36,397 nucleotides of DNA from Gemmatimonadota bacterium. GTDB lineage: Bacteria > Gemmatimonadota > Gemmatimonadetes > Palauibacterales > Palauibacteraceae. The position numbers were made by a program, and so were the translations under genes. The stretch's first letter is position 1. Every line of letters begins with the position of its first letter. Below the pieces are notes generated by a model. That model was not told where the DNA came from. It did not search any database and saw nothing but the letters and a program-made list of their open reading frames with translations. Shown piece after piece: positions 14,144 through 30,631 of the stretch. The DNA is taken from the NCBI GenBank assembly GCA_039656095.1, contig JBDHMQ010000002.1:1-36397 (forward strand), read 5' to 3'.

Positions 14144-14186
14144 GGCGCCTCCACTGGACATTGGGGACTATGCTCGTGCGCCAATC

Positions 14187-14192
14187 TATAAT
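14187..14192 (+). promoter_or_regulatory. Possible -10 element for the Mrp operon
   Basis: Perfect TATAAT in the divergent intergenic region; the -35 (GGGACT) is weak. Confidence 0.4.
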
Positions 14193-14255
14193 CCTGCGAG
14201 GCCGCGGGGCGAGTCGTTCGTTGCCAAACGTTCCAGGCAGAAAGACCTTTGGCCG

Positions 14256-15140
14256 ATGACGCTCAAGCACCGGACCTATTCAGAAGTCACCGGCGCCGAT
14301 ACCTCCCGGATGGTCGAACAGGTAGCCGCGCAGCACGCTCGCGTCGCCGAACGATTGGATGGCGTAAAGGCGTGCATCGCGGTGATGAGCGGGAAGGGTG
14401 GTGTCGGAAAGAGTCTGACAACGGCGGCTCTTGCTTCCGCTTGTGCGAATCGCGGGCTCACCGTCGGCCTGCTTGATGCCGACCTCGTCGGACCCAGCGC
14501 CGCCCGGCTGTCGGGCGTACAGGTGACCGGCCTTACGGTGGATGAGAACGGGCTCGATCCGGCAATATCGCCGACTGGAGTTCGAATCATGTCGATGGAA
14601 TTGCTGCTTGAAGATGGCGCGCCACTGGCGTTCAGGCAGCCCTCGTCTGAGAGTTTCGTATGGCGGGGGGCGCAGGAACGTAGTGCGCTGCGTGAGTTTC
14701 TGGCCGATGTCCGATGGGGGAACCTCGATCTGCTGCTGGTCGACCTGCCGCCGGGTACGCAGCGACTCACAGACCTCGACGAGCTGCTACCCCGTCTGGA
14801 CGGATTGATCGTGGTCACGATTCCCTCGGCGGCTTCACAGGCGGCGGTGGGACGCTCGATGGAGCTGGCCAGGCAAAGGGACATTCAGATTCTTGGTATC
14901 GTAGAAAACATGGCCGGTTACGCCTGTGCGGATTGCGACGAGATTCAGCCACTGTTTCCGGGCGACGCCGGAGAGCAGCTTGCGTCCGCGTACGATACAG
15001 TTCTGCTCGGACGGATTCCGTTTGACGCTGAAGCCGCGGTTCACGCGAACACGGGTGCACTGGATCAACTAATGAACCACACGCTGGCGGGTGAAGCGAT
15101 CGACGCTGTCGCGCTGCAGCTCCTGGAGGCGATCGCATGA
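14256..15140 (+). CDS. apbC: Mrp/NBP35/ApbC-family P-loop ATPase (Fe-S carrier)
   Basis: SGKGGVGKS, DADLVGPS, WRG, DLPPGT, ENM...CADC; start ATG 14256. Confidence 0.9.
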   Translation: MTLKHRTYSEVTGADTSRMVEQVAAQHARVAERLDGVKACIAVMSGKGGVGKSLTTAALASACANRGLTVGLLDADLVGPSAARLSGVQVTGLTVDENGLDPAISPTGVRIMSMELLLEDGAPLAFRQPSSESFVWRGAQERSALREFLADVRWGNLDLLLVDLPPGTQRLTDLDELLPRLDGLIVVTIPSAASQAAVGRSMELARQRDIQILGIVENMAGYACADCDEIQPLFPGDAGEQLASAYDTVLLGRIPFDAEAAVHANTGALDQLMNHTLAGEAIDAVALQLLEAIA

Positions 15141-15601
15141 AATTTCTCTGCGTCGAATGCGACGAGCAGATGATCTTCGAAGAGCGCAACCTGCCGGGAG
15201 ACGGTACACTGGCCGCCGCTTTCCGCTGTCCTGGCTGCGAGCGCATTGTGGCAATGCTCACCAATCCCATGGAGACGCAGCTCGTCTCTGCTCTGGGCAT
15301 CAAGATCGGTGGCAGTGAAGTACCTGGGCAGCCGTTGGAGCTCGTGCGTAGCGAAATGGTCGGCGGTCGCGAGGACGCATTCGTGGACACCGAACCGACA
15401 GCCGCGGCGAATGTCTCTAAAGGCTCACCCGGCGTTGTCTGGAGTCTGGCGGCCGTAGAGCGTCTTGAGAGCGTTCCTCGCTTCGTGCGGGGCATGGTAA
15501 AGCGGATATATACGGACTACGCGCAGGAAAACGGCATTTCCCAGATCACACCAGACGTCATGGACCGCGCGCGCAGCGACCTCGGGCTTGAGGGCATGTG
15601 A
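15137..15601 (+). CDS. CxxC...CxxC metal-binding ribbon plus PCP_red (BchB C-terminal-like) domain protein
   Basis: CVEC...CPGC; C-terminal WSLAAVERLESVPRFVRGMVKRIYTDYAQENGISQITPDVMDRAR. Confidence 0.85.
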   Translation: MKFLCVECDEQMIFEERNLPGDGTLAAAFRCPGCERIVAMLTNPMETQLVSALGIKIGGSEVPGQPLELVRSEMVGGREDAFVDTEPTAAANVSKGSPGVVWSLAAVERLESVPRFVRGMVKRIYTDYAQENGISQITPDVMDRARSDLGLEGM

Positions 15602-15864
15602 GCGCTGAGGCCACGGATGACAGGGAGATCGTGCGCGTCGTTGGTGAGCTCACGATCACGATCGACCGTCTCCTGTGTGTCGGATTCGGAGATTGCATCG
15701 ACGAGGCCCCCGTGGCGTTTGAATTCGACGATGAGGACATAGCGATCCTGACACACCCTGAAAAAGTAGATCGGGAGCACCTTCTGCGAGCCTGCGAGTC
15801 CTGTCCCGTAGACGCGATCACGGTACTGGACGCGGCCGGTTTGACGATCGTCCCGCAGGACTAG
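15598..15864 (+). CDS. Single-cluster ferredoxin (probably [3Fe-4S])
   Basis: IDRLLCVGFGDC...ACESCPVDAI; the second cluster Cys position is Phe. Confidence 0.88.
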   Translation: MSAEATDDREIVRVVGELTITIDRLLCVGFGDCIDEAPVAFEFDDEDIAILTHPEKVDREHLLRACESCPVDAITVLDAAGLTIVPQD

Positions 15865-15873
15865 CGGCCGGCC

Positions 15874-16782
15874 ATGTCCAGTCGAATAGCGTTCGCAGAG
15901 AATCTGAAATTCTCCTACGGGACAGGTCCCGCAGTTCTCGATGATGTTTCACTGGAATTGCGATCCGGTGAAATCCTGGGGCTTCTCGGGCTGAATGGCT
16001 CGGGAAAGACGACGCTGCTCCGGCTTCTATCGCGACTCCTTCAGCCGACCAGCGGCCAACTGGGCGCAGCCGAAGCACCCGCTGTCGTGTTTGACCGGGC
16101 CCCGTTTCAGGCAAGTCTGTCCGGTCTGGAAAATATTGCTCTGGCGCTTGCTCTTCGCGGAGTGCGTGGAGATGAAGCGAAGACGGCCGCAAGCGCCTGG
16201 TTGCAGAGATTCGACCTGAGCGCCGATGAGCACCGACCCGTCGGTGAGTACTCCCTGGGCATGCGCCGTCGCCTGGGCCTGGCGGAAGCGTTTGCGTCCG
16301 AACGATCGTTGTGCTTGCTCGATGAGCCTACCCTCGGGCTGGATCCCGCCGGCCAGCAACTCCTCGGCCAGGCCCTGGCCGCCGGCGCTACGGCGGGACG
16401 CTCGGCGATCATTGCGACCAACGATGCGAACTTTGCCCAGCGAGTCTGCCATCGCGTACTCCTGCTTCATGACAGCCGTGTGCTCGCCGAAGGCACGCCT
16501 GACTCACTGATCACGTCGTTGGACGCACCGACGATCATCGAGGTTGTGACGGCCGGCGGTTTGCCCGTGGACAATCCACCGGAAGGACTATCTGTCGTCG
16601 CGTCAGCAGACAATCGCCTCACATTGTCAGGGACGGATTGCTCGGGTCGTCTTCCCGATGTGTGCCGATGGATTGAGGCCAGCGCGGGTTCGGTCCAGAC
16701 GATCAGAGTCCGGGAGCCTGATCTCGCCGATGTGTTTCTTCGTCTTGCCGGCCAGCCGCTAGTCACGGAATCTGAATCATGA
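15874..16782 (+). CDS. ABC-2 type exporter ATP-binding subunit
   Basis: GLNGSGKTT, YSLGMRRR, LLDEPT; C-terminal REPDLADVFL domain. Confidence 0.9.
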   Translation: MSSRIAFAENLKFSYGTGPAVLDDVSLELRSGEILGLLGLNGSGKTTLLRLLSRLLQPTSGQLGAAEAPAVVFDRAPFQASLSGLENIALALALRGVRGDEAKTAASAWLQRFDLSADEHRPVGEYSLGMRRRLGLAEAFASERSLCLLDEPTLGLDPAGQQLLGQALAAGATAGRSAIIATNDANFAQRVCHRVLLLHDSRVLAEGTPDSLITSLDAPTIIEVVTAGGLPVDNPPEGLSVVASADNRLTLSGTDCSGRLPDVCRWIEASAGSVQTIRVREPDLADVFLRLAGQPLVTESES

Positions 16783-17507
16783 CGGGTGCGATCTGGCGCC
16801 TGACCTGGGCGCTGGCCGTTCGACGACGACGTCTTCTGATCTGGAATTTTCTCGTGCCGATTCTGCTCCTCGTCCCCGTCATGACGAGTGCGGCCGCTGC
16901 ACAGCATCGAGCCGTGGTTGTGGCCGTATTCGTGATGTTCTTTGGGGTTTATGGCAGCTGTATTCCGCTGATTCGAGACTGAATGTCCGGGTGGGTGGAA
17001 AAAATTGGGCTCACCGGATTCGGGGGACGGCGCTGGCTGGTCGAGCGAACCCTCGCATCGACAGCCGTCGACTGGATGCAATTACTCCCCGTGAACCTGC
17101 TGCTGGTTCTGCTGTTAGGGATCCCAACCGATGCAGCATCCGCCATTCTCGTGGCAACTCTGCTCGCGTTGCTGTTTGCAAACCTGCTGGGCGTTCTGGT
17201 CGCCGCGTTCGTCCGAGCTCTAGGAGAGGCAGCGCTCGGATGTGCCGTGCTCTCGTTGTTTGCGCTTCACCTGGCCGGTGTGTTTCGCACGCCGGATCCC
17301 GGATCTCTGGGGGCGGCAGCCGAAGCGTGGAGCCCGCTGCGGCCGCTGCACGATTCCTGGGTGGGCGCTCTTCTGTCGGGAGGCTCCGAGGTCCTCTGGG
17401 CCAAGTGGATGATTCCGGTGGCTGCTCTGGGCGCGTTGCTGGTGCTGGTCGCATTTGCCGGGGATCGACTGGCGGCCCGAATTGCGGCGACCGATTCGGG
17501 CGCCTGA
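16779..17507 (+). pseudogene. ABC-2 type permease interrupted by an in-frame TGA (nonsense, read-through or sequence error)
   Basis: ORFs 16779..16982 and 16983..17507 are in the same frame, separated only by TGA; together they give a ~6-TM permease ending WSPLRPLHD. Confidence 0.7.
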
Positions 17508-17533
17508 TTCCGGATTTTACCGCCCACGGCCTG

Positions 17534-17794
17534 CTACAACCGCAAACCCTTCGGTACGACCCAGTGCTCCAGTGCGTCGAACAGTGCCTGTGCGCCCAGC
17601 GCCAGCAGCGCGGCCGGCGTGGCCGTCCCGATGTTGATTACGACGGCCGTCTTGATTCCGGCCATGATCAACGGGGACGCGAGGGGCAGCTCGATGCGGC
17701 GGAGAATCGTCCCGCGTGACAGTCCTAGCGCCTCGGCAGATTCACGCAGAGGACCTGGAATTCCGGTCAGTCCGGCGTGAGTGTTCCGTACGAC
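17534..17794 (-). pseudogene. Remnant of osmoprotectant (ProW/OpuBB-type) ABC permease
   Basis: VVRNTHAGL...[10 protein letters not shown]...[28 protein letters not shown] joins directly to PAALLAL; the N-terminus and the AxIGAGGxG segment are missing. Confidence 0.8.
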
Positions 17795-17865
17795 TTGCAG
17801 AGGCCGCTGATCTGAATCACGCCTGACAATAGAGCGTGTTACGAGACCGTGTAAGGGGTCCCGGG

Positions 17866-18573
17866 TCAAGCGCCGCCGAACTTGATCATCGTCATCGCCG
17901 GCAGCAGGTTGATCATCGTGTGCACGAGCACGGGTGCCACCAGGTTTCGTCCGCTACGCTCATACACGGCTCCCAGAACCAACCCCCCGATGACGCCCTG
18001 ACCCATCGCCGAGCCTATGGCGGGGCCTAACTGGCCATGCGTCGGCCAATTGGGATTCAAGTAGGCATACGGGATATGGTACATCCCGAACAGGACAGAC
18101 GTCACGACAACAGCCCACAACCTATTCTGAAACCACGCTCCGAGCCGTCCCTGGATGATGCCACGGAAGAAGAACTCTTCCGTGAAGGCGGCCGTCGCCA
18201 ACAAGAGCACGAAAGCGATCGGAAGCAGGAACAGGGCCTTGCCCGACCTGATCAACGACCAGATTGCCTCTGCCCGGTTCGACATGAACAGCTGCGCTAC
18301 ACTGAGTGCCAGGCCGAGAATTGCGGCCCACCAGAGGCCTGTCCGCCATGTCTCTCTCCGGAGTCCAATGGAAGCCAGTGTATCTCGAAACGTACCGTTC
18401 TTCTTGAGTTGAACCACGTGGAACAACGCTAACGGCAGGATGACAAGCGACAGCCAATGTTTCGCCTCGTTCTCGGGATAAAAGAACAGATAGATGAAGT
18501 ACAAGGCGAAATATGCGAGACTCAAGGCTGCTTCAACTCGATAGTGAGCGGATCTGACTTCTGAATCGGACAT
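17866..18573 (-). CDS. CPBP/Abi family intramembrane metalloprotease (type II CAAX)
   Basis: EEFFFRG, FGMYH and HTMIN motifs; multiple TM helices. Confidence 0.92.
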
Positions 18574-18657
18574 GGTTCTCTGCCATCGTAGAGGTCGACC
18601 ACAATTAGCTGAATTCCCTACGAAAAAATCCGTAAATAGGTTTCGGTTTTGGCAGGT

Positions 18658-18687
18658 TTGACGCGATATGCGGGGGCCTCATATATT
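18658..18687 (+). promoter_or_regulatory. Putative sigma70 promoter for the USP-rSAM-oxidase operon
   Basis: TTGACG, 18-bp spacer, TATATT, in an AT-richer intergenic region. Confidence 0.55.
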
Positions 18688-18859
18688 TTTGCCTGTCGCG
18701 TGTCCCCATTCGACCGGAAACGCAACGACTGGCAGGATCAATAACTGACATCGAGCGGGCCAGGTGGCCCGCTCCGCGCATAGATAAGGCCCGCTGTCTC
18801 CAATGGTGACCGGGTCGATTTGTTTGACGTTAAACATGGCTCGAACCACCGAGGTGGCG

Positions 18860-20974
18860 ATGTACCGTCAGGTACTCGTTCCGGTCGACAATTCAATTCA
18901 TTCTGATCTGGCAATGGATCGTGCCCTTGAGATCTGCTCGCGCAGCGGGGGACGCATCACGGCCACTCACGTGTATGCCGCCCGGCTACACGACATTCGC
19001 TTCCGCCAACTTGAAGTCGGTCTTCCGGCGCAATTCCAGGAGCCGCAGGAAATTCGCCGACAGAGGAAGATCCACGACAAGCTGATCGAGAAAGGGCTGC
19101 AGCTGATCTCGGACAGCTTTCTGGATGAGGTGGACAAGAAGGCGAAGCTTGCTGAAATCCCAATGACCCGGCAGCTGCTCGAGGGCATCCACTTTGAAGA
19201 GGTCGCCAGGGAGGCCAACAAGGGAGCCGGACGGTTACCAAGCCTGATCGGGTTTGATGCCAACATCGCCAGCAAGTACGACGGCGGTGACAACGTGCGC
19301 AGCGATGTGCAACTCACCGATGACGGCCGAATCATCGCCGAGGACGAGGATTCCGACGAAAAGCTCGCGGGCCGGAGCGATCGCGACTACGACCTGGTCG
19401 TCATGGGCGCGTATGGAATCGGCCGTCAGCCGCTCAGCCGAATCGGCGGAATGTCGGGCCGTGCACTGCGAAAGATCGAGAAAGACGTACTGATCGTGAG
19501 AGACGAGCGGCCGCTCGACGGCGGCTCACTCATGGTCTGTATCGACGGCTCCGCTTACTCCTACAAGTGCATGCGCATCGCCCTGGAACTGGCGCAGGAA
19601 TATGGCTGCAAGTTGTTCGTCGGGAGCGCTTTCGACGTCGAGTATCACCATGCCGTGTTCAACAACATCAAGGACGTTCTGTCTGTCCAGGCTTCAAAAG
19701 TGTTCAAGTTCGAGGAGCAGGAAGCCCTCCACAACAACATCATCGATAAGGGACTGTTGCGGCTGTGCAAGGCGAATCTGAAGCGTGCTGCCGTGATGGG
19801 AACCGAGTATCCGGACGTCGAAATCGAGACACAGATCCTGGTCGGCAAGCCGTTCCAGGTGATCCTGCAATGGGCAGAGGAAGAAAAGCCGTCACTGCTG
19901 GTTCTGGCACGACACGGATCCCATCGTATCGAGGGCACGGAGCTGGGATCGCAGGCCGAGGAAGTGGTGCGTGCCGTTGATGTCAACACGCTGCTTGTCG
20001 GGATCACGGACGTGCGTCCTGATGACATTCCGTGGATCGAAGAAGATGGTGAGACAGGCCTTGAATGGACTCCGGAGGCAGAAGTCCGCATCCTCCGCGT
20101 GCCGCCGTTCGCGCTTGGCATCGCCCGAAAAGCGGTCGAAGAGTATGTGCTGGAGCATCACGGCCCGGGCAGTCGCTATGCCGCCGCGTTCGTCGACGGG
20201 CCCAGCAAGATGGAAGTGCTGGCCGAAGGAAATAGCGCCTCGGTCAACGGATCCTCAACCGAGACGGCGGACGTTTCAGCTGAAACGCCCATCGTAACAC
20301 CCGAAGAGCTCCCGATCGTGACGAGTGAACGTCTCGACGAGGCGATCACGAAGCTCTTGCCGACCCACATGCAGCTGATCATGGGCATTGGTACCGCCGA
20401 AGAACTGGTCCTGGCCGAGTTGAAGGCGGAGCAGGCGATGGAGCGCACGGTCGTCAAGGGAATCGACGCCGACCCGGAGCCGGAGACGGCGATGGTCGAA
20501 ACGAAGTGCCCGGTCACGGGCCAGGCCCAGACCCGGGAGCGCACCGAGACTGATCCGGTCGAGTGGACACTTGAAGCATTCGCTCGCCTGAAGGCCGTGC
20601 CGCTTATTGCCCGTCCACTCGCCAGGAATACGGTCGAGAAATTCACCCGAGAAGCTGGTATGTGGCGGGTGACAACAATGGTGATGGACGACAACAAGCA
20701 GGCAATGATCGACGCGGACACATTCGATGTCGACACGATGCTTGTGATGTTTAAGGAATTGCAGACGAAGCAGATTCAGGCCGCAGCAGAGGGCGTAGAC
20801 GGAATGACGCCGGAGATGCGAAAGTTCATTGAAGAGGCGAAGGCGAGCGGCGTTACTCGTTGTCCGATACGCGACATGGAAGCCCAGGCGGAGAAGTGCC
20901 CGGTCGACTTCAAGACGGTTACGCCGGAAGAAGCAAGACAGGCGATGGAACAGTTCATGGCGGAGTCGGACTAG
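18860..20974 (+). CDS. Multidomain universal stress protein (USP-USP, 2x PCP_red-like, 3 Cys-Pro motifs)
   Basis: GAGGTGG RBS before ATG 18860; VLVPVDNS...DLVVMGAYG and MVCIDGS...LLVLARHG USP domains; WTPEAEVRILRVPPF and WTLEAFARLKAVPLI; KCPV, RCPI, KCPVD. Confidence 0.88.
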   Translation: MYRQVLVPVDNSIHSDLAMDRALEICSRSGGRITATHVYAARLHDIRFRQLEVGLPAQFQEPQEIRRQRKIHDKLIEKGLQLISDSFLDEVDKKAKLAEIPMTRQLLEGIHFEEVAREANKGAGRLPSLIGFDANIASKYDGGDNVRSDVQLTDDGRIIAEDEDSDEKLAGRSDRDYDLVVMGAYGIGRQPLSRIGGMSGRALRKIEKDVLIVRDERPLDGGSLMVCIDGSAYSYKCMRIALELAQEYGCKLFVGSAFDVEYHHAVFNNIKDVLSVQASKVFKFEEQEALHNNIIDKGLLRLCKANLKRAAVMGTEYPDVEIETQILVGKPFQVILQWAEEEKPSLLVLARHGSHRIEGTELGSQAEEVVRAVDVNTLLVGITDVRPDDIPWIEEDGETGLEWTPEAEVRILRVPPFALGIARKAVEEYVLEHHGPGSRYAAAFVDGPSKMEVLAEGNSASVNGSSTETADVSAETPIVTPEELPIVTSERLDEAITKLLPTHMQLIMGIGTAEELVLAELKAEQAMERTVVKGIDADPEPETAMVETKCPVTGQAQTRERTETDPVEWTLEAFARLKAVPLIARPLARNTVEKFTREAGMWRVTTMVMDDNKQAMIDADTFDVDTMLVMFKELQTKQIQAAAEGVDGMTPEMRKFIEEAKASGVTRCPIRDMEAQAEKCPVDFKTVTPEEARQAMEQFMAESD

Positions 20975-20977
20975 ATC

Positions 20978-22258
20978 GTGCCGATTCCGCACGTCGTCGC
21001 CTGGAACGTCACGCAACGCTGCAATCTTGCATGCGCCCATTGTTACATCTCGGCGGGTTCCTGGCACTCAGCGCAATCGGAACTGTCGACCGATGACTGC
21101 CTGCGCGTGGTTGATGAGATTCTCGCAGCGAATTCCTCGCCGATGCTTATCCTTTCAGGTGGAGAGCCTCTCGTGCGCGACGACCTGGAAACGATTGCGG
21201 CCCGGGCGACTGCCGGCGGCGCCACAGTCGTAGTCGGTACGAACGGAATCGGGCTCACCGACGAGCGGATCATTTCGTTGAAGGCGGCCGGCGTTCAGGG
21301 CGTGGCGGTAAGTATCGACTCGCTCGACCCGACCTACCACGATCGCTTCCGCCACGGTGCGGGCGCACTCGGTCAGACTCTTGAGGCCATCGATCGCCTG
21401 GCCCGGCACGAACTCGACTTCATCATCCAGACGACGGTCACACGGGGGAATCGAGCTGAGCTCGCTGATCTGGTCGACTGGGCGGCGGATAAGGGTGCGG
21501 TCTCGTTCAATCTCTACTTCCTGGTCGAGACAGGACGCGGAGAGGGGATGAAGGGGATGTCGCCCGAGGAGAACGATTCGGTTCTGGCAGAGCTGTTGTT
21601 ACTCGAGGCGAAGTACCGGGGCCGCATGATGGTTCGCTCGAAGTGCCAGCCCCAGATCATGCGCCACGCGTTTGAGGGTAGCAGCGATTCGCCGTTGTTG
21701 AACTACGAAACGCGGTGTCCGTGCGGCGTTCACTACTGCCGGATCACGCCCGAGGGTAAGGTCACGCCCTGCCCGTATATGCCTGCCGTGGCAGGCGATC
21801 TCATGGTGTCCACATTCAGCGAGATCTGGACCGGTTCAGAATTGTTCGCCTCACTGCGAGATCCGGAGCTTGGCGGGAAATGCGGCGTCTGCGAGTATCG
21901 AGAGGTTTGCGGTGGTTGCCGGGCGCGGGCGTATGCAAACTCGGGTGATCCGCTGGGCCCCGACGAGTCCTGTGCGTACGAACCGGACGGTAGCGCTGAG
22001 CTGATCCAGCCGGCTGCGACATCGGTGACTTACGGCTCTTCCGAACGTGAGTTTGTTCTGGCGTGGACGCCGGAAGCAGAAGCTCGGATCGGCCGAATAC
22101 CGTCGTTCGTACGCGGCGTAGTAGTAGACCGCGTTGAGACCTGGGCCCGGGAAAACGGACACGATGAGGTGACCGCTGAAATGTTGAGTCAGATGCGTAG
22201 CCGGATGCCGGTCGAATTTTCTCGTCGTCGCCCGTTCTTTCTTGGAGGAAAGCGATGA
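20978..22258 (+). CDS. Radical SAM/SPASM protein of AhbD/NirJ type with C-terminal PCP_red-like domain
   Basis: WNVTQRCNLACAHCY, SGGEPL, SPASM GKCGVCEYREVCGGCRARAY...DESC, C-terminal WTPEAEARIGRIPSFVR. Confidence 0.9.
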   Translation: MPIPHVVAWNVTQRCNLACAHCYISAGSWHSAQSELSTDDCLRVVDEILAANSSPMLILSGGEPLVRDDLETIAARATAGGATVVVGTNGIGLTDERIISLKAAGVQGVAVSIDSLDPTYHDRFRHGAGALGQTLEAIDRLARHELDFIIQTTVTRGNRAELADLVDWAADKGAVSFNLYFLVETGRGEGMKGMSPEENDSVLAELLLLEAKYRGRMMVRSKCQPQIMRHAFEGSSDSPLLNYETRCPCGVHYCRITPEGKVTPCPYMPAVAGDLMVSTFSEIWTGSELFASLRDPELGGKCGVCEYREVCGGCRARAYANSGDPLGPDESCAYEPDGSAELIQPAATSVTYGSSEREFVLAWTPEAEARIGRIPSFVRGVVVDRVETWARENGHDEVTAEMLSQMRSRMPVEFSRRRPFFLGGKR

Positions 22259-24051
22259 GCGGGGTGACTGCGCGACGTATCGGAATCTGGAGCTTTCTGG
22301 CTCTCGCCGGCTTGGCCCTTCTGGCGCTCGTCGCTCCGGAAAGTCTGCTTGCCCAGGACGCATCGCAGATTCGTAACTATGGCGACTTTCCGATCATCGG
22401 TGCCCGCGGGGCAATCTGGATCACGGCACAAGTTCACTTGATGTTTGCCGCTTTCGTGCTCGGCGTACCGATGTTCGCGGTCGTGGTCGAAGCGATCGGC
22501 ATTTTCGGAGGCGACAAGCGGTACGATAAGCTCGCTAAAGAATTCGCGCGGCTACTGCTGATCGCCTACAGTGCCACGGCGATCTGGGGCGCGATGTTGA
22601 CATTCGCGCTGTCCTCTCTCTATCCGGTGTTCTGGGCCTACCTGACAACGATCTTTGGACCCTCGATGTGGGTCTACGCGGGCCTGTTCCTGGTAGAATC
22701 ATTCACTCTCTATCTCTACTATTACGGTTGGGATCGATGGAGCGTGGGGAGGGCGAAGTATTGGCACTGGGGCCTCGGAATTCTGCTCAACATCTGGGGC
22801 ACGATCGTGATGTTCATCGCGAACGGGTGGCTCACTTACATGATGAGCCCGCCGGCCGAAGTGACGGCAGACACCGCGCCGGACCAGGTTCAGTTGTGGA
22901 GTGCAATTTTTAACGCGACCTGGATGCCGATCAATATCCACCGCATGATCGCGAATGTCGTTTTCGGTGGTGCAATCGTCGGGATGTACGCGGGCTACCG
23001 GTTCCTTGCTGCGAAGACTGATGAAGAACGGGCGCATTACGATTGGATGGGGTACATCGGCAACTTCATCGCAATCGGTGCGCTGATCGTTCTGCCATTT
23101 GCCGGCTACTACCTCGGCCGTGAGATCTACGAATTCAACCAGCAGATGGGGATCACCATGATGGGTGGTTTCATGAGCTGGCTGTGGATCATCCAGGCAT
23201 TCCTGATCGGTGTTCTGTTCCTGGCCGGTAACTACTACCTGTGGATCGGAATGGGCCGGATTCCCGGTGCCGAGCGATTCACCCCGTACATCAAGTACAT
23301 GCTGGTGGTCCTTGTTCTCGGGGTCATCGTCTGGGCAACGCCTCACACCATGATTGCGAGCCGCGACGAGATTGCGGCAATGGGAGGTACGCACCACCCG
23401 TTCCTCGGCGCCCTTGGCGTGATGAGCGCAAAGAACACAGCGGTCAACCTGATGATCCTGACGACCTTCCTTTCATTCATGTTGTATCGGAGGGCGAACA
23501 AGATTCCGGTCGTCAGCTGGGCAAAATCGGGGACCATCGCGCAGGGCGCGGCGCTGGTGATCGCGGCGGTTGTCGTCGTCTTCTATGGTGTCTACGGCTA
23601 CTTCGTCACGGCAATTGTGAGAATTGGGTTCAGCGTCTACCAGGTGATGGCTGTCCTGGTCGCGATGCTGTTTGTGGTCGTCCTCGATGTGATGATGTTG
23701 CGGGGAGCGCAATCGCGCGGTGAGATCCGCTGGGGCCAGATGCCGGCTCGATCTCAGTACGCGCTATTCATCCTGGCTGTGACTTTCACGTGGCTCATGG
23801 GCCTCATGGGCTTCGCACGGAGCGGTATCCGCCAGCACTGGCATGTCTACGAAGTGATTCGTGATACCAGTAGCCAGGCGGCGACACCGGCGCTCGGACC
23901 GGCCGCAACGATGATCAGTGTGTGCGTATTGATTTTCCTGTCTCTCGTCGCGGTCATCTTCTGGCTCGGAGGTCTCGCCGAGAAGCCGGCGCACATAGAC
24001 CGGGCAGATCTCGTCACATCTGTACCTGCTCCGACCGGAGGGGAGGCCTGA
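22255..24051 (+). CDS. Cytochrome bd-like (CydA-fold) oxidoreductase, divergent family
   Basis: VHLMF, FLVESFTLYLYYYGWD, ANGWLTYMMSP, NIHRM and C-terminal GIRQHW align with the CydA motifs H19, E107/GWD, ANGWMQxP, H186 and GRQPW. Confidence 0.85.
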   Translation: MSGVTARRIGIWSFLALAGLALLALVAPESLLAQDASQIRNYGDFPIIGARGAIWITAQVHLMFAAFVLGVPMFAVVVEAIGIFGGDKRYDKLAKEFARLLLIAYSATAIWGAMLTFALSSLYPVFWAYLTTIFGPSMWVYAGLFLVESFTLYLYYYGWDRWSVGRAKYWHWGLGILLNIWGTIVMFIANGWLTYMMSPPAEVTADTAPDQVQLWSAIFNATWMPINIHRMIANVVFGGAIVGMYAGYRFLAAKTDEERAHYDWMGYIGNFIAIGALIVLPFAGYYLGREIYEFNQQMGITMMGGFMSWLWIIQAFLIGVLFLAGNYYLWIGMGRIPGAERFTPYIKYMLVVLVLGVIVWATPHTMIASRDEIAAMGGTHHPFLGALGVMSAKNTAVNLMILTTFLSFMLYRRANKIPVVSWAKSGTIAQGAALVIAAVVVVFYGVYGYFVTAIVRIGFSVYQVMAVLVAMLFVVVLDVMMLRGAQSRGEIRWGQMPARSQYALFILAVTFTWLMGLMGFARSGIRQHWHVYEVIRDTSSQAATPALGPAATMISVCVLIFLSLVAVIFWLGGLAEKPAHIDRADLVTSVPAPTGGEA

Positions 24052-24052: not shown

Positions 24053-24832
24053 ATGTGGCGTACGAACCTGTCGGTCGCGCTGGTCGTCCTGGGTACGCTC
24101 GGCATCTATACGGCCGTGGCGAACATGATTCCGCAGTTGGAGTCGGACGTGCCCGAAGAGCTCGTGTTTAGCGCGGACGTCTCGCCTGAGGAGCTCGTGG
24201 CCGCCGGTGAGGTGCTGTATACCGGTGGAGGCGGCTGCATCGCCTGCCACGGTCTCGGCACAAGAGCGCCAAGGTTGGTCGGCACGATCGGAACCGTATG
24301 TGACTCGCGCGCACCTGCAATGTCCTGCAAGGACTATCTGCACGAGTCCCTCGTGAACCCGACCGCCTACGTGGTCGATGGCTTTCAGCCCATCATGCCG
24401 GACATGAGCCGCACTCTGTCCGATGCTCAGATCTGGAGTCTGGTGGCATTCCTGCAGAGCCAGGGCGGCGAGGTGACGGTGACAGCGGCCGATCTCGCGC
24501 CAAGAGGCGATGCTGCAGACTCAGGCGCCGGTCCCGCGCCAGTAACTGGAGAAGCCACGGCCAGAGACATCGATGCCGCGGCGCTTGTCCAGTCCCTCGG
24601 CTGCACCGCTTGCCATGCTTCCGGTGATGCGCCCGGCGGGATCGGGCCGGCTATGTCGGCGATGGCCGAACTCGAACCCGAGTACATTCGCCGCTCGATC
24701 GTCGAACCAGCCGCAGATACGGCGGTTGGATTCGAAGCGTTCGCCGGTACCATGCCACCGACACTTGGAGAACAGCTCACGGAATCTCAGCTCGAGGCAC
24801 TGGTGACCTACCTTGCGAGCGGAGCAGAGTGA
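24053..24832 (+). CDS. Membrane-anchored di-heme cytochrome c
   Basis: CIACH and CTACH, each with a downstream MP ligand motif; N-terminal TM. Confidence 0.9.
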   Translation: MWRTNLSVALVVLGTLGIYTAVANMIPQLESDVPEELVFSADVSPEELVAAGEVLYTGGGGCIACHGLGTRAPRLVGTIGTVCDSRAPAMSCKDYLHESLVNPTAYVVDGFQPIMPDMSRTLSDAQIWSLVAFLQSQGGEVTVTAADLAPRGDAADSGAGPAPVTGEATARDIDAAALVQSLGCTACHASGDAPGGIGPAMSAMAELEPEYIRRSIVEPAADTAVGFEAFAGTMPPTLGEQLTESQLEALVTYLASGAE

Positions 24833-25653
24833 TGACCCAACCAGGCAATTCACCCCGAGGCCTGAAGCATCCGTTCTGGCAGGCTGCCCTGCTGCTCGTC
24901 CTGTCATTTCTCCTGATCCGGTATGGAATCGCGATACTTCCGCCGCTGGTCGGCGTGGAGAGTGCACCCGTACCTGCATCCGTCGTCCTGCAGTTCATGG
25001 TGACTGCCCTGGTGGGTGTGCTGCTGTACGTGAGTGCTGATGAGACGCGCTGGACACAGTTCAAGCAGCCGATTCACGGCGTGGCCGTCGACGCGGACAA
25101 AAAGCTACTGCGCACCGCCATGTTGGTTGGCATTCCGGTGTTCGTCGGCTTCCTGACGTATCAGCAGGTTAGTGCCAGCGTCGGAGCTCCACCGGCCCTG
25201 CGCTCCATACATCCAGCGCCGCCCAATCAGGTCACGTTCCGTGGGTCGTCGATGCGCCTCGCCGGTCTAGAGAATCCACTGAGGACGACCGGCGACATGA
25301 CAGTACACTTGCAGACGGGAAAGACGGTCTACGTCCGTAACTGCATGCCATGCCATGGCGACCTCCTGGATGGTAGAGGGCACTTCGCCCGTGGATTCAA
25401 TCCCGTCCCGGCCGATTTCACTAGCAATGGGACGATAGCCCAGCTTACCGAGAGCTATGTGTTCTGGCGGATCGCCAAAGGCGGCCCTGGCCTGCCGAAG
25501 GAAGGGACGCCCTGGGACTCTGCGATGCCCGCCTGGGAAGATGTTCTGACGGAGAACGAAGTCTGGTCGGTCATCCTGTACCTGTATGACCAGACCGGCT
25601 GGTCGCCTCGCACCTGGGAAGAAGCGGAAGAGGGCGAAGGGGGTGAACATTGA
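24832..25653 (+). CDS. Membrane-bound (3 TM) mono-heme cytochrome c
   Basis: CMPCH, SAMPAW; three N-terminal hydrophobic helices. Confidence 0.9.
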   Translation: MTQPGNSPRGLKHPFWQAALLLVLSFLLIRYGIAILPPLVGVESAPVPASVVLQFMVTALVGVLLYVSADETRWTQFKQPIHGVAVDADKKLLRTAMLVGIPVFVGFLTYQQVSASVGAPPALRSIHPAPPNQVTFRGSSMRLAGLENPLRTTGDMTVHLQTGKTVYVRNCMPCHGDLLDGRGHFARGFNPVPADFTSNGTIAQLTESYVFWRIAKGGPGLPKEGTPWDSAMPAWEDVLTENEVWSVILYLYDQTGWSPRTWEEAEEGEGGEH

Positions 25654-27197
25654 ATACCGTCCGCCTGAGCCGCGTCGTCGCGGCCGTTCTCGGCCTGTCT
25701 GTATTTCTGGTGCTTCCTGTTGCCGCGCAGGACGTGGATAATGGCGAGCTGATCTACGACAAGTGGTGTGCCGAGTGCCATGGTGTGGAGGGGCGCGGCG
25801 ACGGTCCGGCTGCTGACTATATGCTCCCAAGGCCCCGCGACTTCGTGCAGGCCCGATACCAGATCCGCACCACGGCCAACGGCGAATTACCTACCGACGC
25901 AGACATCCTTCAAGTGCTTCAGCTGGGTATGCCGGGCACGACCATGCCGGCTTGGCCAAATCTCAACGATACGGAACGCCGTGATGTCATAGCGTTCATC
26001 AAGAGTTTTTCCCGCTTCTTTGACGGGTCGGATCCACAGTTGCCAGAGGTCGTGTCCGACCCGGGCGGTGGAGCCGATGCCATCGAGTCCGGCCGAACCG
26101 TTTTCGAAACGCTCGAGTGCTGGAAGTGTCACGGAGAATCGGGACGAGGCAGTGGCCAGTCGACAGCGACGCTCGAGGATTGGCGGGAATACCCGATTCG
26201 GGCAGCTGACCTGACGGAACCCTGGATGTTCAACGGCGGCGGCAGCGCTGACGCTATTTACCTTCGGATGATGACAGGCCTGGACGGCACACCCATGCCT
26301 GCCTACAGCGACGCCGTCGATTCGGAGGTCGTGAGCCCGGAAGAGCTGTGGAACGTAGCGCACTACGTAGCGAGCCTGGCCCCGACGCTTGCGCCACGAA
26401 CTGCCGACTTCATCTCCGCGTCCCGCGTCGAGGGAGAGCTGCCGACGGCACCTGATGACGATGTCTGGGCTTCAGCAAAAGCGTTCTATGTTCCGCTCGT
26501 GGGCCAGGTGATCCGCCCGCCGCGAAATTTCGCCCCGACGGTAGACGGGATGTGGATTCGCGCCCTGCACGACGGTTCAAGCGTAGCACTGCACCTGAGT
26601 TGGGGCGATCCGTCCAACAGCCCGGACTCGTCCTGGACCGAGTGGCAGACGAAGGTCGTAGATGCCATGACGCCGGACGGGGCAACGCTGTCGCCCACCG
26701 ATCCGATGACAGACGGAATCGCCGTGCAATTTCCGGCGAGCATCCCGGACGGTACCGAACGCCCGTATTTCTTGATGGGCGAGGCAAATGATCCGGTAAC
26801 GCTATGGACGTGGGACAGTCGATCTGGGGTGGCAGAAGCCAGTGGCCGCGGTCTCGGCCACATCGACGGACTCACGGGAAGCGATCTTAATGCCGAGGCG
26901 CGCTGGAACGAGGGTCACTGGGAGTTGATGCTGACCCGATCAATCGTTTCGGAAGCTGAGGGCGCGATCGATCTGGCCGAAGGCGTTGTGATTCCTGCCG
27001 CGATGTTTGCATGGGACGGTTCGAGCGCCGAGTCGTCGGACCGAGGATCTGTAAGCAGCTGGATCTATTTGTATCTCGAGGAGCCATCTTCTTCCAATGT
27101 CGTCATTGCTCCGATCGTCGCAATCCTGCTCAGCGGAGGGCTGTTGCTCCTGCTGGTCCGGGGTGCGCAGAAGCGCGCGGCGACCGTAGAAATCTAG
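25650..27197 (+). CDS. Di-heme cytochrome c fused to an EB_dh/DOMON-like heme-b domain and C-terminal TM anchor
   Basis: Signal peptide; CAECH and CWKCH; WGDPS...DGIAVQFP...PYFLMG...AWDG pattern of ethylbenzene dehydrogenase gamma-type domains. Confidence 0.87.
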   Translation: MNTVRLSRVVAAVLGLSVFLVLPVAAQDVDNGELIYDKWCAECHGVEGRGDGPAADYMLPRPRDFVQARYQIRTTANGELPTDADILQVLQLGMPGTTMPAWPNLNDTERRDVIAFIKSFSRFFDGSDPQLPEVVSDPGGGADAIESGRTVFETLECWKCHGESGRGSGQSTATLEDWREYPIRAADLTEPWMFNGGGSADAIYLRMMTGLDGTPMPAYSDAVDSEVVSPEELWNVAHYVASLAPTLAPRTADFISASRVEGELPTAPDDDVWASAKAFYVPLVGQVIRPPRNFAPTVDGMWIRALHDGSSVALHLSWGDPSNSPDSSWTEWQTKVVDAMTPDGATLSPTDPMTDGIAVQFPASIPDGTERPYFLMGEANDPVTLWTWDSRSGVAEASGRGLGHIDGLTGSDLNAEARWNEGHWELMLTRSIVSEAEGAIDLAEGVVIPAAMFAWDGSSAESSDRGSVSSWIYLYLEEPSSSNVVIAPIVAILLSGGLLLLLVRGAQKRAATVEI

Positions 27198-27238: not shown

Positions 27239-28096
27239 ATGTCATTCAGGGACTCAACGTGGGTCGCTCTTTTCGCGGCCGTCGCTCTCGGCTGTGGTGG
27301 CGGAGACGGTGACGCGGGCAGCAGTGATGGTGGTGGTGATGCCGGTAGCGATGCACCGGCAGCAGCGCCTGCTGTCGATCCGGCCATAGCGGCCACGGTC
27401 AGTGGTACGGTGAGCTTCACGGGCACCGCACCGGCGGGCACGGCGATCGATATGTCCGAGGAGCCGGCCTGCGCAGAAAAGCACACGACCACGCCGATGA
27501 TCCAGCCCGTACGAGTCGGTGACGGGGGCGGACTTGGCGATGTGTTTGTCTACGTGAAGGAAGGTCTCGGCGACATGACGTTTCCGACGCCGGCAGCCGC
27601 AGCCGTTCTCGATCAGAACGGCTGCGAGTACGCACCGCATGTGGTCGGAGTGATGGCGGGCCAGGATCTCAACATCAGGAACAGCGACCCTGTGCTCCAC
27701 AACATCAACACGCAGCCCGAGATCAATCGCGGCTTTAACGTCAGCCAGCCGCGTGCCGGCATGGAGTCTACCCGGACGTTCCGGGATGCCGAGGTCATGA
27801 TCCCGGTCAAGTGCGACGTCCACGGCTGGATGAACGCGTACATCGGCGTGACAGACAATCCGTACCATGCCGTGTCGTCGGCAGACGGCAGCTTCACGAT
27901 CAGCGGTCTTCCGCCGGGTGAGTATGTGATCGAGGCCTGGCATGCTACGCTCGGCGTATCCACGCAAACCATTACGGTTGGGGACGCGGAGACTGGTACG
28001 GCGGACTTTTCGTTCAGCGAAGACATGGCTGGCGGGCCGGTTCCGATGGGCGAAACCGTCGATCTGGCACACCCGGCAGGCCACACGGCGGGCTGA
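27239..28096 (+). CDS. Lipoprotein with cupredoxin-like and carboxypeptidase-regulatory-like domains
   Basis: AGGAGG RBS; lipobox ALGC; LHNIN...CDVHGWM type-1 copper ligand set; DGSFTISGLPPGEYVIEAWH. Confidence 0.85.
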   Translation: MSFRDSTWVALFAAVALGCGGGDGDAGSSDGGGDAGSDAPAAAPAVDPAIAATVSGTVSFTGTAPAGTAIDMSEEPACAEKHTTTPMIQPVRVGDGGGLGDVFVYVKEGLGDMTFPTPAAAAVLDQNGCEYAPHVVGVMAGQDLNIRNSDPVLHNINTQPEINRGFNVSQPRAGMESTRTFRDAEVMIPVKCDVHGWMNAYIGVTDNPYHAVSSADGSFTISGLPPGEYVIEAWHATLGVSTQTITVGDAETGTADFSFSEDMAGGPVPMGETVDLAHPAGHTAG

Positions 28097-28149: not shown

Positions 28150-28833
28150 ATGGATTGGTCGTTTCCGATCAACATCTCCACGCAGGGCGTGGGGATCGAC
28201 AACATGTTCTGGTTGATCTTCTGGATCACCGGCGCCGCCTTCTTAATCGTAGAAGTCGGCGTGCTGTGGTTCCTGTGGAAATACCGGGCTCGCGACGGCC
28301 ACAAGGCCAGATACACGCATGGTCATCTGGGGGCGGAAATCATCTGGACCACGATTCCCGCGGTCACGATGGTCGCCCTGGGCATCATGAGTGGCCAGAT
28401 GTGGGCTGATATTCGCAGCCCGAGTTCGTTCCCGGAGAATGCGCTGACCATAGGCGTCAGCGCGAAGCAGTTCGAATGGAACGTCACGTATCCCGGCGCC
28501 GATCGTGTGCTCGGTAACGAAGACGATTTCACGATCAGGAATCGATTTGAGTTTCCTGTTGATGAACCGGTCATTGTTCGGCTCGAGTCCGAAGATGTCA
28601 TCCATTCCTTCTTCATTCCGGAGATGCGGGTGAAGCAGGACGCCGTACCCGGCATGACGATCCCCATCTGGTTCGAAGCGACCCAGACCGGGGAATTCCA
28701 GATAGCGTGTGCGGAACTATGTGGCCTTGGCCATTACCGCATGAGAGCCCGTGTCGTCGTGCACGAGGCGGATGCATTCAATCGCTGGTACGACGAACAC
28801 ACGGGCGCGGCTCAAGTCGCCGCTGCCGATTAA
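28150..28833 (+). CDS. coxB: Cytochrome c oxidase subunit II
   Basis: Two TM helices; DVIHSF and CAELCGLGHYRM CuA motifs; no fused cytochrome c. Confidence 0.96.
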   Translation: MDWSFPINISTQGVGIDNMFWLIFWITGAAFLIVEVGVLWFLWKYRARDGHKARYTHGHLGAEIIWTTIPAVTMVALGIMSGQMWADIRSPSSFPENALTIGVSAKQFEWNVTYPGADRVLGNEDDFTIRNRFEFPVDEPVIVRLESEDVIHSFFIPEMRVKQDAVPGMTIPIWFEATQTGEFQIACAELCGLGHYRMRARVVVHEADAFNRWYDEHTGAAQVAAAD

Positions 28834-28851
28834 CTGGAGGAAGTTTCGCGT

Positions 28852-30606
28852 ATGGCGACGATGATGGCCGAGCCTACGGGCGTTCCGGTGCGGGTGGAAG
28901 AGCACCCGCAGTCCTTTATACGGAAGTACATTTTCTCGACTGATCACAAGATCATCGGGATACAATTCCTGTTTACATGCTTGTTCTTCCTGCTCATCGG
29001 CGGGTTGTTGGCAGTGATGCTTCGCTTCCAGCTGGGGTTTCCGGGCGCAACGATGCCAGGCGGCAGCCTGCTGCCCGAGACCATGGCACCCGACGGAATC
29101 ATCCTTCCGGAGTTCTACAATTCGCTGGTCACCATGCATGGCACATTCATGGTGTTCTTTGCCGTCATGCCCCTGCTCGTGGGCGTGTACGCGAACTACT
29201 TGATTCCCGTCCAGATCGGGACGCACGACATGGCATTCCCGCGACTCAACATGATGTCGTACTGGATGTTCCTGGTGTCGGGCCTGATCATGCTGTCCAG
29301 CTTCTGGGTAATCGGAGGAGCCTCGGCGTCGGGATGGACGCAGTACGCCCCGCTCAGTGCTTCTCCGGAAGCGTCCGGCGTATCCACTGGCCAGATCTTG
29401 TGGATCGTCAGTATTGCCATATTCGCTTTCAGTTCGCTGCTGGGTTCGGTCAACTACATCACGACGATCATCAATCAGCGTGCGCCGGGAATGACCTGGC
29501 TCCGCCTTCCGCTGGTGATCTGGACCCTGTTCATCACGGCAATACTCGGATTGCTCGCCATCCCTGTGCTCACTGCGGCGTTGATCATGCTGCTGTTCGA
29601 CCAGACGATCGGCACGACATTCTTCCTGCCGGATACGGGTGGCCAGCCTTTGCTCTGGCAGCACCTGTTCTGGTTCTTCGGCCATCCTGAGGTATACATC
29701 CTCATTCTTCCGGGCATGGGATTCGTGTCCGAGATCATCGCGAACGGGTCGCGCAAACCAATCTTTGGTTACAAGAGCATGGTTTACGCGATTATCGCGA
29801 TCGCGGGTCTCGGGTTCATCGTCTGGGGTCACCACATGTTCCAGTCGGGGATGAATCCGGCGCTCGGGATGAGCTTCATGATTACGACCCTGATCATCGC
29901 GGTGCCTTCGGCGATCAAGGTGTTCAACTGGATGGGTACGATGTGGGGCGGATCGATTCGCTTTCACACGCCGTTTCTGTTCGCCGTCGGCTTTGTGATG
30001 CTGTTCGCGATCGGTGGATTCAGCGGCATTTTCATGGCCTCGTCGCCGGTCGACATCTTCATTCACGACACGTATTTCATTGTCGCGCATATTCATTATG
30101 TGCTGTTCGGCGGGAGTCTGTTCGCCATCTTCGGCGCGATTTACTACTGGTTCCCCAAGATGTTCGGGCGGATGATCAACGAGACGGCCGGGAAGATCCA
30201 CTTTTTCCTGACCTTCGTGCTGTTCAACCTTGTATTCTTCCCGATGCATGGTCTAGGAATGGCCGGGATGATGCGTCGCATCTACGAGCCAGCGCAGTAC
30301 GAGCATCTGTCGGGAATCCAGGATACAAACACGATGGTTTCGTGGGCCGCATTCGGCCTGTTCGCTTCCGGGCTGTACTTCATGGTTCTGTTCTTCTGGA
30401 GCCTGTTCAAGGGTAAGCCGGCACCGGAGAATCCCTGGGAAGCCACAACGCTGGAATGGACTCTTCCGTCGCCGCCCATGCACGGCAACTGGAAAGAACT
30501 TCCGACGGTTTATCACGGTCCGTACGAGTACAGTCATCCGGATATGGAAAAAGACTGGCTGCTGCAGAACGAGAGGCCAGATGTCGTTTCGCCGGCACAC
30601 CACTGA
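28852..30606 (+). CDS. coxA: Cytochrome c oxidase subunit I, type A1
   Basis: TDHK, MHG, DMAFPRLN (D channel), GHPEVY, WGHHM, AIKVFNW (K channel), VAHIHYV, GMMRR. Confidence 0.98.
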   Translation: MATMMAEPTGVPVRVEEHPQSFIRKYIFSTDHKIIGIQFLFTCLFFLLIGGLLAVMLRFQLGFPGATMPGGSLLPETMAPDGIILPEFYNSLVTMHGTFMVFFAVMPLLVGVYANYLIPVQIGTHDMAFPRLNMMSYWMFLVSGLIMLSSFWVIGGASASGWTQYAPLSASPEASGVSTGQILWIVSIAIFAFSSLLGSVNYITTIINQRAPGMTWLRLPLVIWTLFITAILGLLAIPVLTAALIMLLFDQTIGTTFFLPDTGGQPLLWQHLFWFFGHPEVYILILPGMGFVSEIIANGSRKPIFGYKSMVYAIIAIAGLGFIVWGHHMFQSGMNPALGMSFMITTLIIAVPSAIKVFNWMGTMWGGSIRFHTPFLFAVGFVMLFAIGGFSGIFMASSPVDIFIHDTYFIVAHIHYVLFGGSLFAIFGAIYYWFPKMFGRMINETAGKIHFFLTFVLFNLVFFPMHGLGMAGMMRRIYEPAQYEHLSGIQDTNTMVSWAAFGLFASGLYFMVLFFWSLFKGKPAPENPWEATTLEWTLPSPPMHGNWKELPTVYHGPYEYSHPDMEKDWLLQNERPDVVSPAHH

Positions 30607-30631
30607 ACGCACCCGGAACGAGAGAGTCTGA

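Follow-up and report, generated by a model that had tools for sequence, protein, structure and literature searches.

In a 36,397-nucleotide stretch of Gemmatimonadota DNA (contig JBDHMQ010000002.1; the whole stretch is called the window below), we find a CydA-like gene whose product is well supported as an OR-N-type, cytochrome-c-linked 'bd-like' haem subunit, although public records label it 'cytochrome ubiquinol oxidase subunit I'. The protein is probably the membrane subunit that carries haem in a bd-like complex linked to cytochrome c, of the 14-helix OR-N branch (N1/N2-type), and it needs no CydB. It keeps a CydA core with the equivalents of E. coli H19 (His61), H186 (His229), E107 (Glu148) and H126 (His171), has lost the quinol-binding Q-loop, E445 (Ser523) and E99/E101 (Tyr141), and has gained four helices, and its gene shares an operon of tightly overlapping genes with those of three c-type cytochromes, all membrane-anchored and one with an EB_dh haem-b domain. 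The family has already been described (OR-N, 'bd-like'), and the Gemmatimonadota copy adds no new kind to it. The gene and the positions in it on which the argument turns are the following (residue numbers are those of the CydA-like protein):

22255-24051, forward strand: CydA-like 'bd-like' (OR-N type) membrane haem protein of 598 amino acids (aa), with 13 transmembrane (TM) helices and an N-terminal signal/anchor helix
22435-22437, forward strand: codon of His61, equivalent to CydA H19, the axial ligand of the O2-binding haem (hhalign)
22675-22698, forward strand: Tyr141 to Glu148, in which Tyr141 replaces E99/E101 and Glu148 corresponds to E107/E108 (proton channel)
22765-22767, forward strand: codon of His171, equivalent to E. 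coli H126 (hidden Markov model, HMM, alignment and hhalign)
22939-22941, forward strand: codon of His229, equivalent to H186, a haem b558 ligand (hhalign)
23338-23400, forward strand: periplasmic loop TPH364...TH380H381P, with His381 conserved, His364 and His380 variable, and a predicted cytochrome c contact
23422-23433, forward strand: Met390-Ser-Ala-Lys393 at the periplasmic start of TM9, with a candidate sixth ligand of a b558-like haem
23809-23844, forward strand: GFARS523GIRQH528WH530, with Ser at the E445 position and Arg522, Arg526 and His530 conserved

The reading frame is open over its full length, and membership of its product in the CydA superfamily is borne out by a Pfam match over the gathering score, by the CydA fold and by the H19-equivalent haem ligand. 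The hmmscan match to PF01654 (E = 3.4e-20; 72.5 bits versus a cut-off of 26.2) covers profile positions 2-248 of 418 only, and a separate Pfam match runs over positions 2-409, while hhalign pairs residues 49-250 with E. coli CydA 9-212 at 94% probability. Because the hhalign comparison of the family with E. coli CydA reached the N-terminal 200 residues only, equivalences towards the C-terminus are drawn from weak local matches and from how far the structural alignments extend. The 598 residues contain no CxxCH motif and give no match to PF00115.

The AlphaFold2 model, built from a 93-row alignment (predicted local distance difference test, pLDDT, 90.1; predicted template modelling score, pTM, 0.87), contains 13 membrane helices plus the N-terminal helix, compared with 9 in CydA, and its helix 256-294 continues directly into helix 296-335 with no Q-loop between them; the loop 361-390 is modelled with less confidence (pLDDT 67-77). 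All of the top 10 Foldseek matches are CydA chains, and VIA-align superposes the model on ten solved CydA chains with Z scores of 32.0-34.9 (root mean square deviation 3.3-4.0 Å, 346-367 residues aligned), in alignments that span residues 42 to 584. The next VIA-align rows are ActF/ActC of alternative complex III (ACIII; Z 19.6-22.9) and then PsrC (Z 14.8). These rows stand far above unrelated ones, and the model hints at a common scaffold for CydA-type and NrfD-type membrane subunits.

Conservation was assessed in 25 diverse full-length representatives, 120 close orthologues (76-92% identity) and 120 Nitrospirota homologues of P0271, and counts are given in that order below. His61 is kept in 23/25, 120/120 and 119/120 sequences, Glu148 in 17/25, 120/120 and 119/120, His171 in 24/25, 120/120 and 120/120, and His229 in 23/25, 120/120 and 120/120. 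In canonical bd oxidases, E445 ligates haem b595, E99 lies near haem d, and H186 and M393 ligate haem b558. An ungapped HMM alignment to Geobacillus CydA places its E101 (the E99 equivalent) on Tyr141 and its E108 on Glu148, and a gapped alignment to E. coli CydA places E99 on Val140 instead; Tyr141 is retained in 22/25, 120/120 and 119/120. The residue matched by His171, H126, is listed as a proton-channel residue in the part of Murali et al. drawn on here (bioRxiv 10.1101/2021.01.16.426971). With respect to the C-terminal motif, Ser523 is assigned to the E445 position because R526-Q-H-W matches CydA R448-Q-P-W, a local match that is sub-threshold alone, and the correspondence agrees with the structural alignment, which reaches the C-terminus, and with the Pfam match over profile positions 2-409. 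Ser523 is found in 18/25 (Glu in 2/25), 120/120 and 120/120, His530 in 19/25, 120/120 and 120/120, and His528 in 7/25, 119/120 and 19/120. Four rows of a 53-row set have Glu at 523, and since His530 is kept in three of them (P0156, P0162 and P0178), it did not arise to replace E445.

Met390 (23422-23424) is present in all 120 close orthologues and all 120 Nitrospirota homologues, and Lys393 in 23/25 diverse representatives. Nearly all rows of the 53-row set have Met or Glu at position 390, with Met in most clades and Glu in a clade of seven representatives (P0159, P0169, P0174, P0177, P0180, P0196 and P0198). Both residues serve as haem ligands in the bd superfamily, and a Met/Glu swap would be of the type expected of a haem axial ligand; judging from its invariance and its place at the periplasmic start of a helix, Met390 may be the analogue of M393. 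The whole pattern His61/His229/His364/His381/Met390/Ser523/His530 is identical in 117 of the 120 Nitrospirota homologues. The first-pass annotation of this DNA had described a CydA-fold protein with H19 and H186 equivalents, Ser in place of E445 within GFARSGIRQHW, no Q-loop motif and extra TM helices, and each of these statements holds: the model scores Z 32-35 against solved CydA chains and the protein matches PF01654, the His61 and His229 codons start at 22435 and 22939, the motif is residues 519-529 (23809-23841), neither the hmmscan match nor the model has a Q-loop, and the helix count exceeds that of CydA. Further conserved residues that it did not list are His171, Tyr141, Met390, His530 and, taken alone, His381.

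The public name, together with the fact that the window's own genome is only 85% complete, would suit an ordinary quinol oxidase subunit I whose CydB is encoded elsewhere, a remote partner that the first-pass annotation had also raised as a threat to its own view. We surveyed 41 genomes, including the window's own: 25 carry a strong orthologue (71-100% identity), 11 carry CydB over the cut-off and 2 carry both (G012 and G036). PF02322 (CydB) was not found in the window's own genome, nor over the cut-off in 23 of the 25 orthologue-bearing genomes, one of which is a single contig and 98% complete. In G012 and G036, CydB lies beside a canonical CydA that is only 26-29% identical to the CydA-like protein. 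We rejected a remote CydB partner in view of this absence in 23 relatives and of the canonical neighbour in the other two. Furthermore, the Q-loop with its quinol-site residues K252 and E257 is missing from the protein, and the qOR residues E445 and E99 are replaced by Ser523 and Tyr141 (or Val140). The claim of no CydB and no ordinary quinol oxidase is thus borne out by the missing Q-loop and the survey, and we regard the quinol oxidase explanation as extremely improbable.

With respect to family placement, the parts of the OR-N description available to us (bioRxiv 10.1101/2021.01.16.426971) portray a family without a quinol site, with universal H19, with 14 helices in N1/N2 compared with 10 in OR-N3-N5, and with OR-N2 often lacking a second CydA; haem c motifs mark OR-C. 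The CydA-like protein agrees in having no Q-loop, no CxxCH and 13 membrane helices plus an N-terminal helix, and its operon agrees in having three cytochromes c and no second CydA-like gene. This is in line with published descriptions, in the sections of PMC3578206 and PMC10839748 used here, of 14 TM helices, no quinol site and a cytochrome c donor. Lucker et al. 2013 (PMC3578206, in part) describe the Nitrospina bd-like protein likewise and note that mono- and dihaem cytochromes c and an alternative NxrC share its cluster, and Mundinger et al. (2019; PMC6606698, in part) report clusters of a bd-like gene, two membrane cytochromes c and alt_NxrC from Nitrospira, Nitrospina and anammox bacteria. 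Identity to a Nitrospira sp./Manganitrophaceae protein is about 40%, the nearest Atlas clusters are from Nitrospirota, and the representatives at 33-49% identity come from Nitrospira/Manganitrophaceae, Nitrospirota, Nitrospinaceae and a Nitrospinae bin. In a quick tree, a type of test that the first-pass annotation had called for, the protein lies on the side of the Nitrospirota and Nitrospinota homologues and apart from E. coli CydA, on a poorly supported backbone (14 of 33 inner branches open). Within that tree, the window protein falls with its Gemmatimonadota orthologues, and a paralogue from the same genome falls in a separate, well-supported clade. Our literature search returned no paper combining a bd-like oxidase with cryo-electron microscopy, or Gemmatimonadota with bd-like proteins.

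The genes that surround the CydA-like gene, all on the same strand, carry the evidence for cytochrome c as its electron partner:

18803-22258, forward strand: Usp-PCP_red protein and an AhbD/NirJ2-like radical SAM/SPASM enzyme with a PCP_red tail (Pfam, NCBIfam, synteny)
24053-24832, forward strand: membrane-anchored dihaem cytochrome c, 259 aa, with two CxxCH motifs (Pfam, CxxCH motifs, anchor helix)
24829-25653, forward strand: three-TM monohaem cytochrome c, 274 aa (Pfam, hydrophobic segments, 4-bp overlap)
25650-27197, forward strand: dihaem cytochrome c-EB_dh fusion with a C-terminal anchor (PF09459 plus two cytochrome c domains, two CxxCH motifs)
27239-28096, forward strand: lipoprotein with a CarboxypepD_reg-like domain and Cys-x2-His-x2-Met (sub-cut-off Pfam matches; conserved in synteny)
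28150-31234, forward strand: aa3-type haem-copper cytochrome c oxidase, CoxB-CoxA-CoxC (Pfam and NCBIfam)

The radical SAM stop codon overlaps the CydA-like start by 4 bp, and the intergenic gaps along the operon are -4, +1, -4 and -4 bp (the 1-bp gap precedes the dihaem cytochrome c), a spacing by which we judge the CydA-like gene to be translationally coupled to its neighbours. We fetched 80 public loci with an 11-row alignment, almost all from Gemmatimonadota, and counted gene order where a locus was long enough. The order Usp, radical SAM, CydA-like, dihaem cytochrome c, cytochrome c, dihaem cytochrome c-EB_dh, lipoprotein and CoxBAC recurs in nearly every such locus, and of the Gemmatimonadota loci that extend far enough, nearly all have coxBAC immediately downstream. 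The EB_dh domain is that of the type II dimethyl sulfoxide reductase gamma subunit, which holds haem b (TIGR03477, E = 6.8e-26, below cut-off), and the architecture of the fusion is that of Nitrospira 'alt_NxrC'.

In addition, nature has fused the two partners. CxxCH occurs in 5 of 33 long CydA-like representatives, three of which carry it in a C-terminal extension of one or two cytochrome c domains (P0122, 889 aa; P0123, 784 aa; P0132, 807 aa); in the specific case of P0122, which is 56% identical to the window protein, residues 630-884 are a homologue of the window's dihaem cytochrome c (34% identity, E = 2e-39). Complex prediction with residues 40-585 of the CydA-like protein, the 274-aa cytochrome c and three haems gave an interaction prediction score from aligned errors (ipSAE) of 0.65 (runs 0.64, 0.65 and 0.69), compared with 0.00 for the best of three controls; contacts agree between runs by at least 50%, and partner pLDDT is at least 73. 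In calibration, 116 of 157 solved complexes and 2 of 215 mismatched pairs scored at least this high, counts that are only a rough guide here because custom alignments and riding ligands were used. The confident contacts join the added TM7/TM8 hairpin and the His loop (residues 320-384, 497 and 499) to partner residues 34-75, and the loop contributes 361-363, 366-369, 372, 375-377 and 381-384. The three-helix cytochrome c is thus predicted to be a subunit docking on TM7/TM8 and the His loop. Electron exchange with c-type cytochromes, which the first-pass annotation had suggested, gains support from the conserved overlapping operon, the P0122 fusion and the ipSAE of 0.65 against 0.00, and we conclude that it very probably takes place.

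We envisage a low-spin b haem that would be held by His229 and Met390 and a high-spin haem that would be held by His61, with electrons entering from periplasmic cytochromes c, not quinol, and protons moving from the cytoplasm to the His61 haem through the retained Glu148 and His171. In the simplest view, His381 and His530 would take over from E445, either as ligands of haem or as partners of its propionates. As a cytochrome c oxidase, the enzyme might reduce O2 at the His61 haem in parallel with the aa3 oxidase of its own operon; we favour this chemistry because the H19, E107 and H126 equivalents are almost invariant, and offer it as a tentative proposal, held less firmly than the assignment to a cytochrome-c-linked complex. 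Several points weigh against this picture. E99 and E445 of the di-haem site are gone, so the O2 chemistry may differ or be absent, and a second oxidase looks redundant beside aa3 in the same operon. Only position and conservation speak for equating Met390 with M393 and for the roles given to His381 and His530, and the predicted complex is a model score, which supports binding without showing it. Among the 120 Nitrospirota homologues, 118 have His364 and all have His381 and His530, a trio that fits a three-His metal site there. The weak backbone of the tree leaves N1 versus N2 unsplit, and no OR-N enzyme has been purified; according to the portions of PMC10839748 and PMC12342949 available, papers of 2024 and 2025, the family is uncharacterised, its subunit composition and function being unconfirmed.

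A serious rival, which we consider possible but distinctly less likely, is that the module is an electron conduit towards aa3: the bd-like protein and the three cytochromes would form a non-catalytic membrane wire with cytochrome c or the copper lipoprotein as the link to the co-encoded oxidase. Such a wire would not reduce O2 itself and would draw its electrons from a periplasmic donor or, as ACIII does, from the quinone pool, with reverse flow possible. The position directly upstream of coxBAC in nearly all Gemmatimonadota loci speaks for it, as do the loss of E99 and E445, the likeness of the model to ActF/ActC (Z 20-23) and PsrC (Z 14.8), and an EB_dh subunit of the type that anchors periplasmic molybdoenzymes, and an ACIII-like or reverse-electron-flow role has been speculated on in print (in the parts of PMC3578206 and PMC6606698 drawn on). 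However, all known quinol-site residues are absent, the near-invariance of the H19, E107 and H126 equivalents points to proton-coupled chemistry at the His61 haem, and the module also occurs with no oxidase nearby, on another contig of the same genome (C15) and in a Myxococcota locus. As for an ACIII-like role as sole quinol:cytochrome c oxidoreductase, none is needed, because the genome already has two cytochrome b genes plus NrfD and molybdopterin-type (ACIII-like) genes; we rejected this version as superfluous.

The first-pass annotation had instead drawn attention to the His cluster TPH...THHP as a possible haem-metal binuclear site. The cluster is present at 362-364 (TPH) and 379-382 (THHP), with His codons at 23344, 23392 and 23395, but the 598 residues contain 10 His in total, and because 3981 of 20000 shuffles place at least 3 His within 18 residues, it is not beyond chance by itself. 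His364 is kept in 16/25, 77/120 (Asn in 41, Ala in 2) and 118/120 sequences, His380 in 5/25, 104/120 and 0/120 (Gln in 117), and His381 in 18/25, 120/120 and 120/120; the same-genome paralogue has Arg364 and Val380 but keeps His381 and His530. Because His364 and His380 vary among orthologues, the named trio is not a conserved three-His site. The CuB site of haem-copper oxidase subunit I is made of three invariant His; the named cluster does not supply three such residues, and the trio 364/381/530 is near-invariant in the Nitrospirota clade only. A binuclear site on the named cluster is therefore not upheld, as two of its three His vary and are Arg and Val in the paralogue, and the loop is a predicted docking surface. 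The caveat of the first-pass annotation that the His might be unconserved applies to His364 and His380 and not to His381. We take His381 and His530, and His364 in Nitrospirota, to be under genuine constraint on their conservation, and the variable TPH/THH loop to be mainly a docking surface for the three-helix cytochrome c.

A metal site can be recast on the constrained residues. The b595 haem, whose ligand E445 is lost, would be replaced by copper or non-haem iron on His381, His530 and mostly His364 beside the His61 haem, which strikes us as improbable, and the protein would then be a convergent haem-copper-type O2 or nitric oxide (NO) reductase with cytochrome c as donor, which we find equally doubtful. 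What recommends this explanation is that Ser stands for E445 in all 120 close orthologues and all 120 Nitrospirota homologues while three new His appear, that the 364/381/530 trio is so well kept in Nitrospirota, that the extra His would lie on the periplasmic side at haem level (topology from the modelled helices), that conserved Tyr141 occupies the place of E99/E101, and that the CydA-like gene is accompanied by a haem-type radical SAM gene and by one for a lipoprotein that may be a cupredoxin. The idea of a haem-copper site in the bd-like family is already in print and not new: haem b and copper sites in one Nitrospira bd-like oxidase (bd-like_2) were proposed by Lucker et al. 2010, as cited in the part of PMC6606698 drawn on. 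On the other side, 43 of 120 close orthologues have Asn or Ala in place of His364 and the paralogue has Arg (His364 is kept in 16/25 family-wide), His380 is found in just 5/25, His530 is present even with Glu523 (P0156, P0162, P0178), the His loop is lower in model confidence and predicted to touch the partner cytochrome, and PF00115 gives no match. The insert also compares poorly with haem-copper enzymes. Model region 305-486 reaches Z 7.5 with cbb3 (3mk7_A), 7.1 with ba3 (1ehk_A) and 6.6 with qNOR (8zgo), values that we take as noise because they are level with delta-crystallin/lyase rows (Z 6.4-8.0) and under the VIA-align noise level for helical bundles; we accordingly rejected haem-copper-oxidase-like inserted helices. 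The family-wide conservation of His381, His530 and Met/Glu390 would read more simply as that of haem ligands, and it is unlikely that a His-ligated copper or non-haem iron (His381, His530, usually His364, with Tyr141 nearby) replaces the b595 haem across the family. If it did, a haem-metal reductase of O2 (or NO) that draws on cytochrome c would have evolved independently a second time, and the Gemmatimonadota Asn364 forms would be natural two-His variants.

The lipoprotein at 27239-28096 has an LGC lipobox, a beta-sandwich domain and a Pro-His upstream of Cys-x2-His-x2-Met. This motif resembles, and is possibly, a type 1 copper (cupredoxin) site, but none of the cupredoxin Pfam models matched the lipoprotein at E up to 0.01. 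The radical SAM enzyme matches TIGR04055 and TIGR04545 at 276-277 bits, below the 500-bit NCBIfam cut-off, and is nearest to NirJ2/AhbD, below both cut-offs.

Elsewhere in the window, the PCP_red (BchB C-terminal-like) domain is carried by three proteins encoded at 14133-22258: one of 154 aa, the Usp protein, where it occupies two stretches, and the radical SAM enzyme. An Mrp/NUBPL-type Fe-S loader is encoded in the same group. An HmuY-like open reading frame (ORF; haem-binding lipoprotein family) lies just upstream of the Fe-S and radical SAM genes on the reverse strand (13325-13945), and two ORFs of 320 and 602 aa without a Pfam or NCBIfam match lie 3' of coxC (31986-32948, forward strand; 32964-34772, reverse strand).

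A second module is encoded in the same genome on contig C15 (L003:10567-16840), around a 52%-identical CydA-like paralogue of 664 aa with an extra helix pair. Its order is lipoprotein, CydA-like, cytochrome c, cytochrome c and dihaem cytochrome c-EB_dh, with a cytochrome c/beta-propeller gene upstream on the other strand and no radical SAM or cox genes alongside. In addition, a contig of a Myxococcota metagenome-assembled genome (L080, about 3400-16000) holds two divergent copies of the five-gene core, head to head, whose CydA-like proteins are 50% and 61% identical to the window protein; neither radical SAM nor cox genes accompany these copies, and no oxidase genes were found in the 21 kb of the contig that were covered.

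In Nitrospira and Nitrospina, OR-N bd-like proteins are presumed to serve as the main terminal oxidases, and their chemistry is of interest to bioenergetics. The Gemmatimonadota set separates extra residues under constraint (His381, His530, Met/Glu390 and Tyr141) from unconstrained ones (His364 and His380), offers a predicted subunit contact between TM7/TM8 plus the His loop and the three-helix cytochrome c, and shows that the module is not tied to nitrite oxidoreductase (NXR) and that its travelling companions are a haem-type radical SAM gene and an aa3 oxidase. Heterotrophic Gemmatimonadota might also be easier biochemical sources than nitrite oxidisers.

Among known systems, haem-copper oxidase subunit I is comparable only as a works-like analogy, the shared points being a cytochrome c donor and extra periplasmic-side His close to a high-spin haem ligand; sequence or convincing fold kinship is lacking, and the candidate His are not invariant. 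Canonical E. coli CydA (PDB 6RKO, 6RX4) shares the fold (Z 32-35, about 350 residues aligned), the equivalents of H19, H126, H186 and E107 and the R-Q-x-W motif. It differs in having the Q-loop (K252, E257), E445 where the window protein has Ser and E99 where it has Tyr or Val, in lacking the four extra helices, and in pairing with CydB/CydX instead of cytochromes c. The bd-like_3/alt_NxrC_2 cluster, as presented in the portion of PMC6606698 used here, likewise combines a bd-like protein with mono- and dihaem membrane cytochromes c and an EB_dh protein of about 55-60 kDa with two haem c motifs and one anchor helix. The module in the window, however, adjoins coxBAC and not NXR genes, and its host, in whose genome 4 molybdopterin genes were found, is not a known nitrite oxidiser. 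Closest of all are the OR-N bd-like proteins of Nitrospira (NIDE0901-like) and Nitrospina, which have the same CydA N-terminal core with H19 and H186 ligands, the same membrane helices in place of the Q-loop (14 helices, no CxxCH), and the same operon setting with c-type cytochromes and no CydB. The window protein is set apart from them by its Gemmatimonadota origin (about 38-40% identity to the sampled Nitrospirota proteins), by the dispensability of His364 in its clade, and by its operon partners, which are an aa3 oxidase and a radical SAM gene of AhbD/NirJ-like type in place of NXR or complex III.

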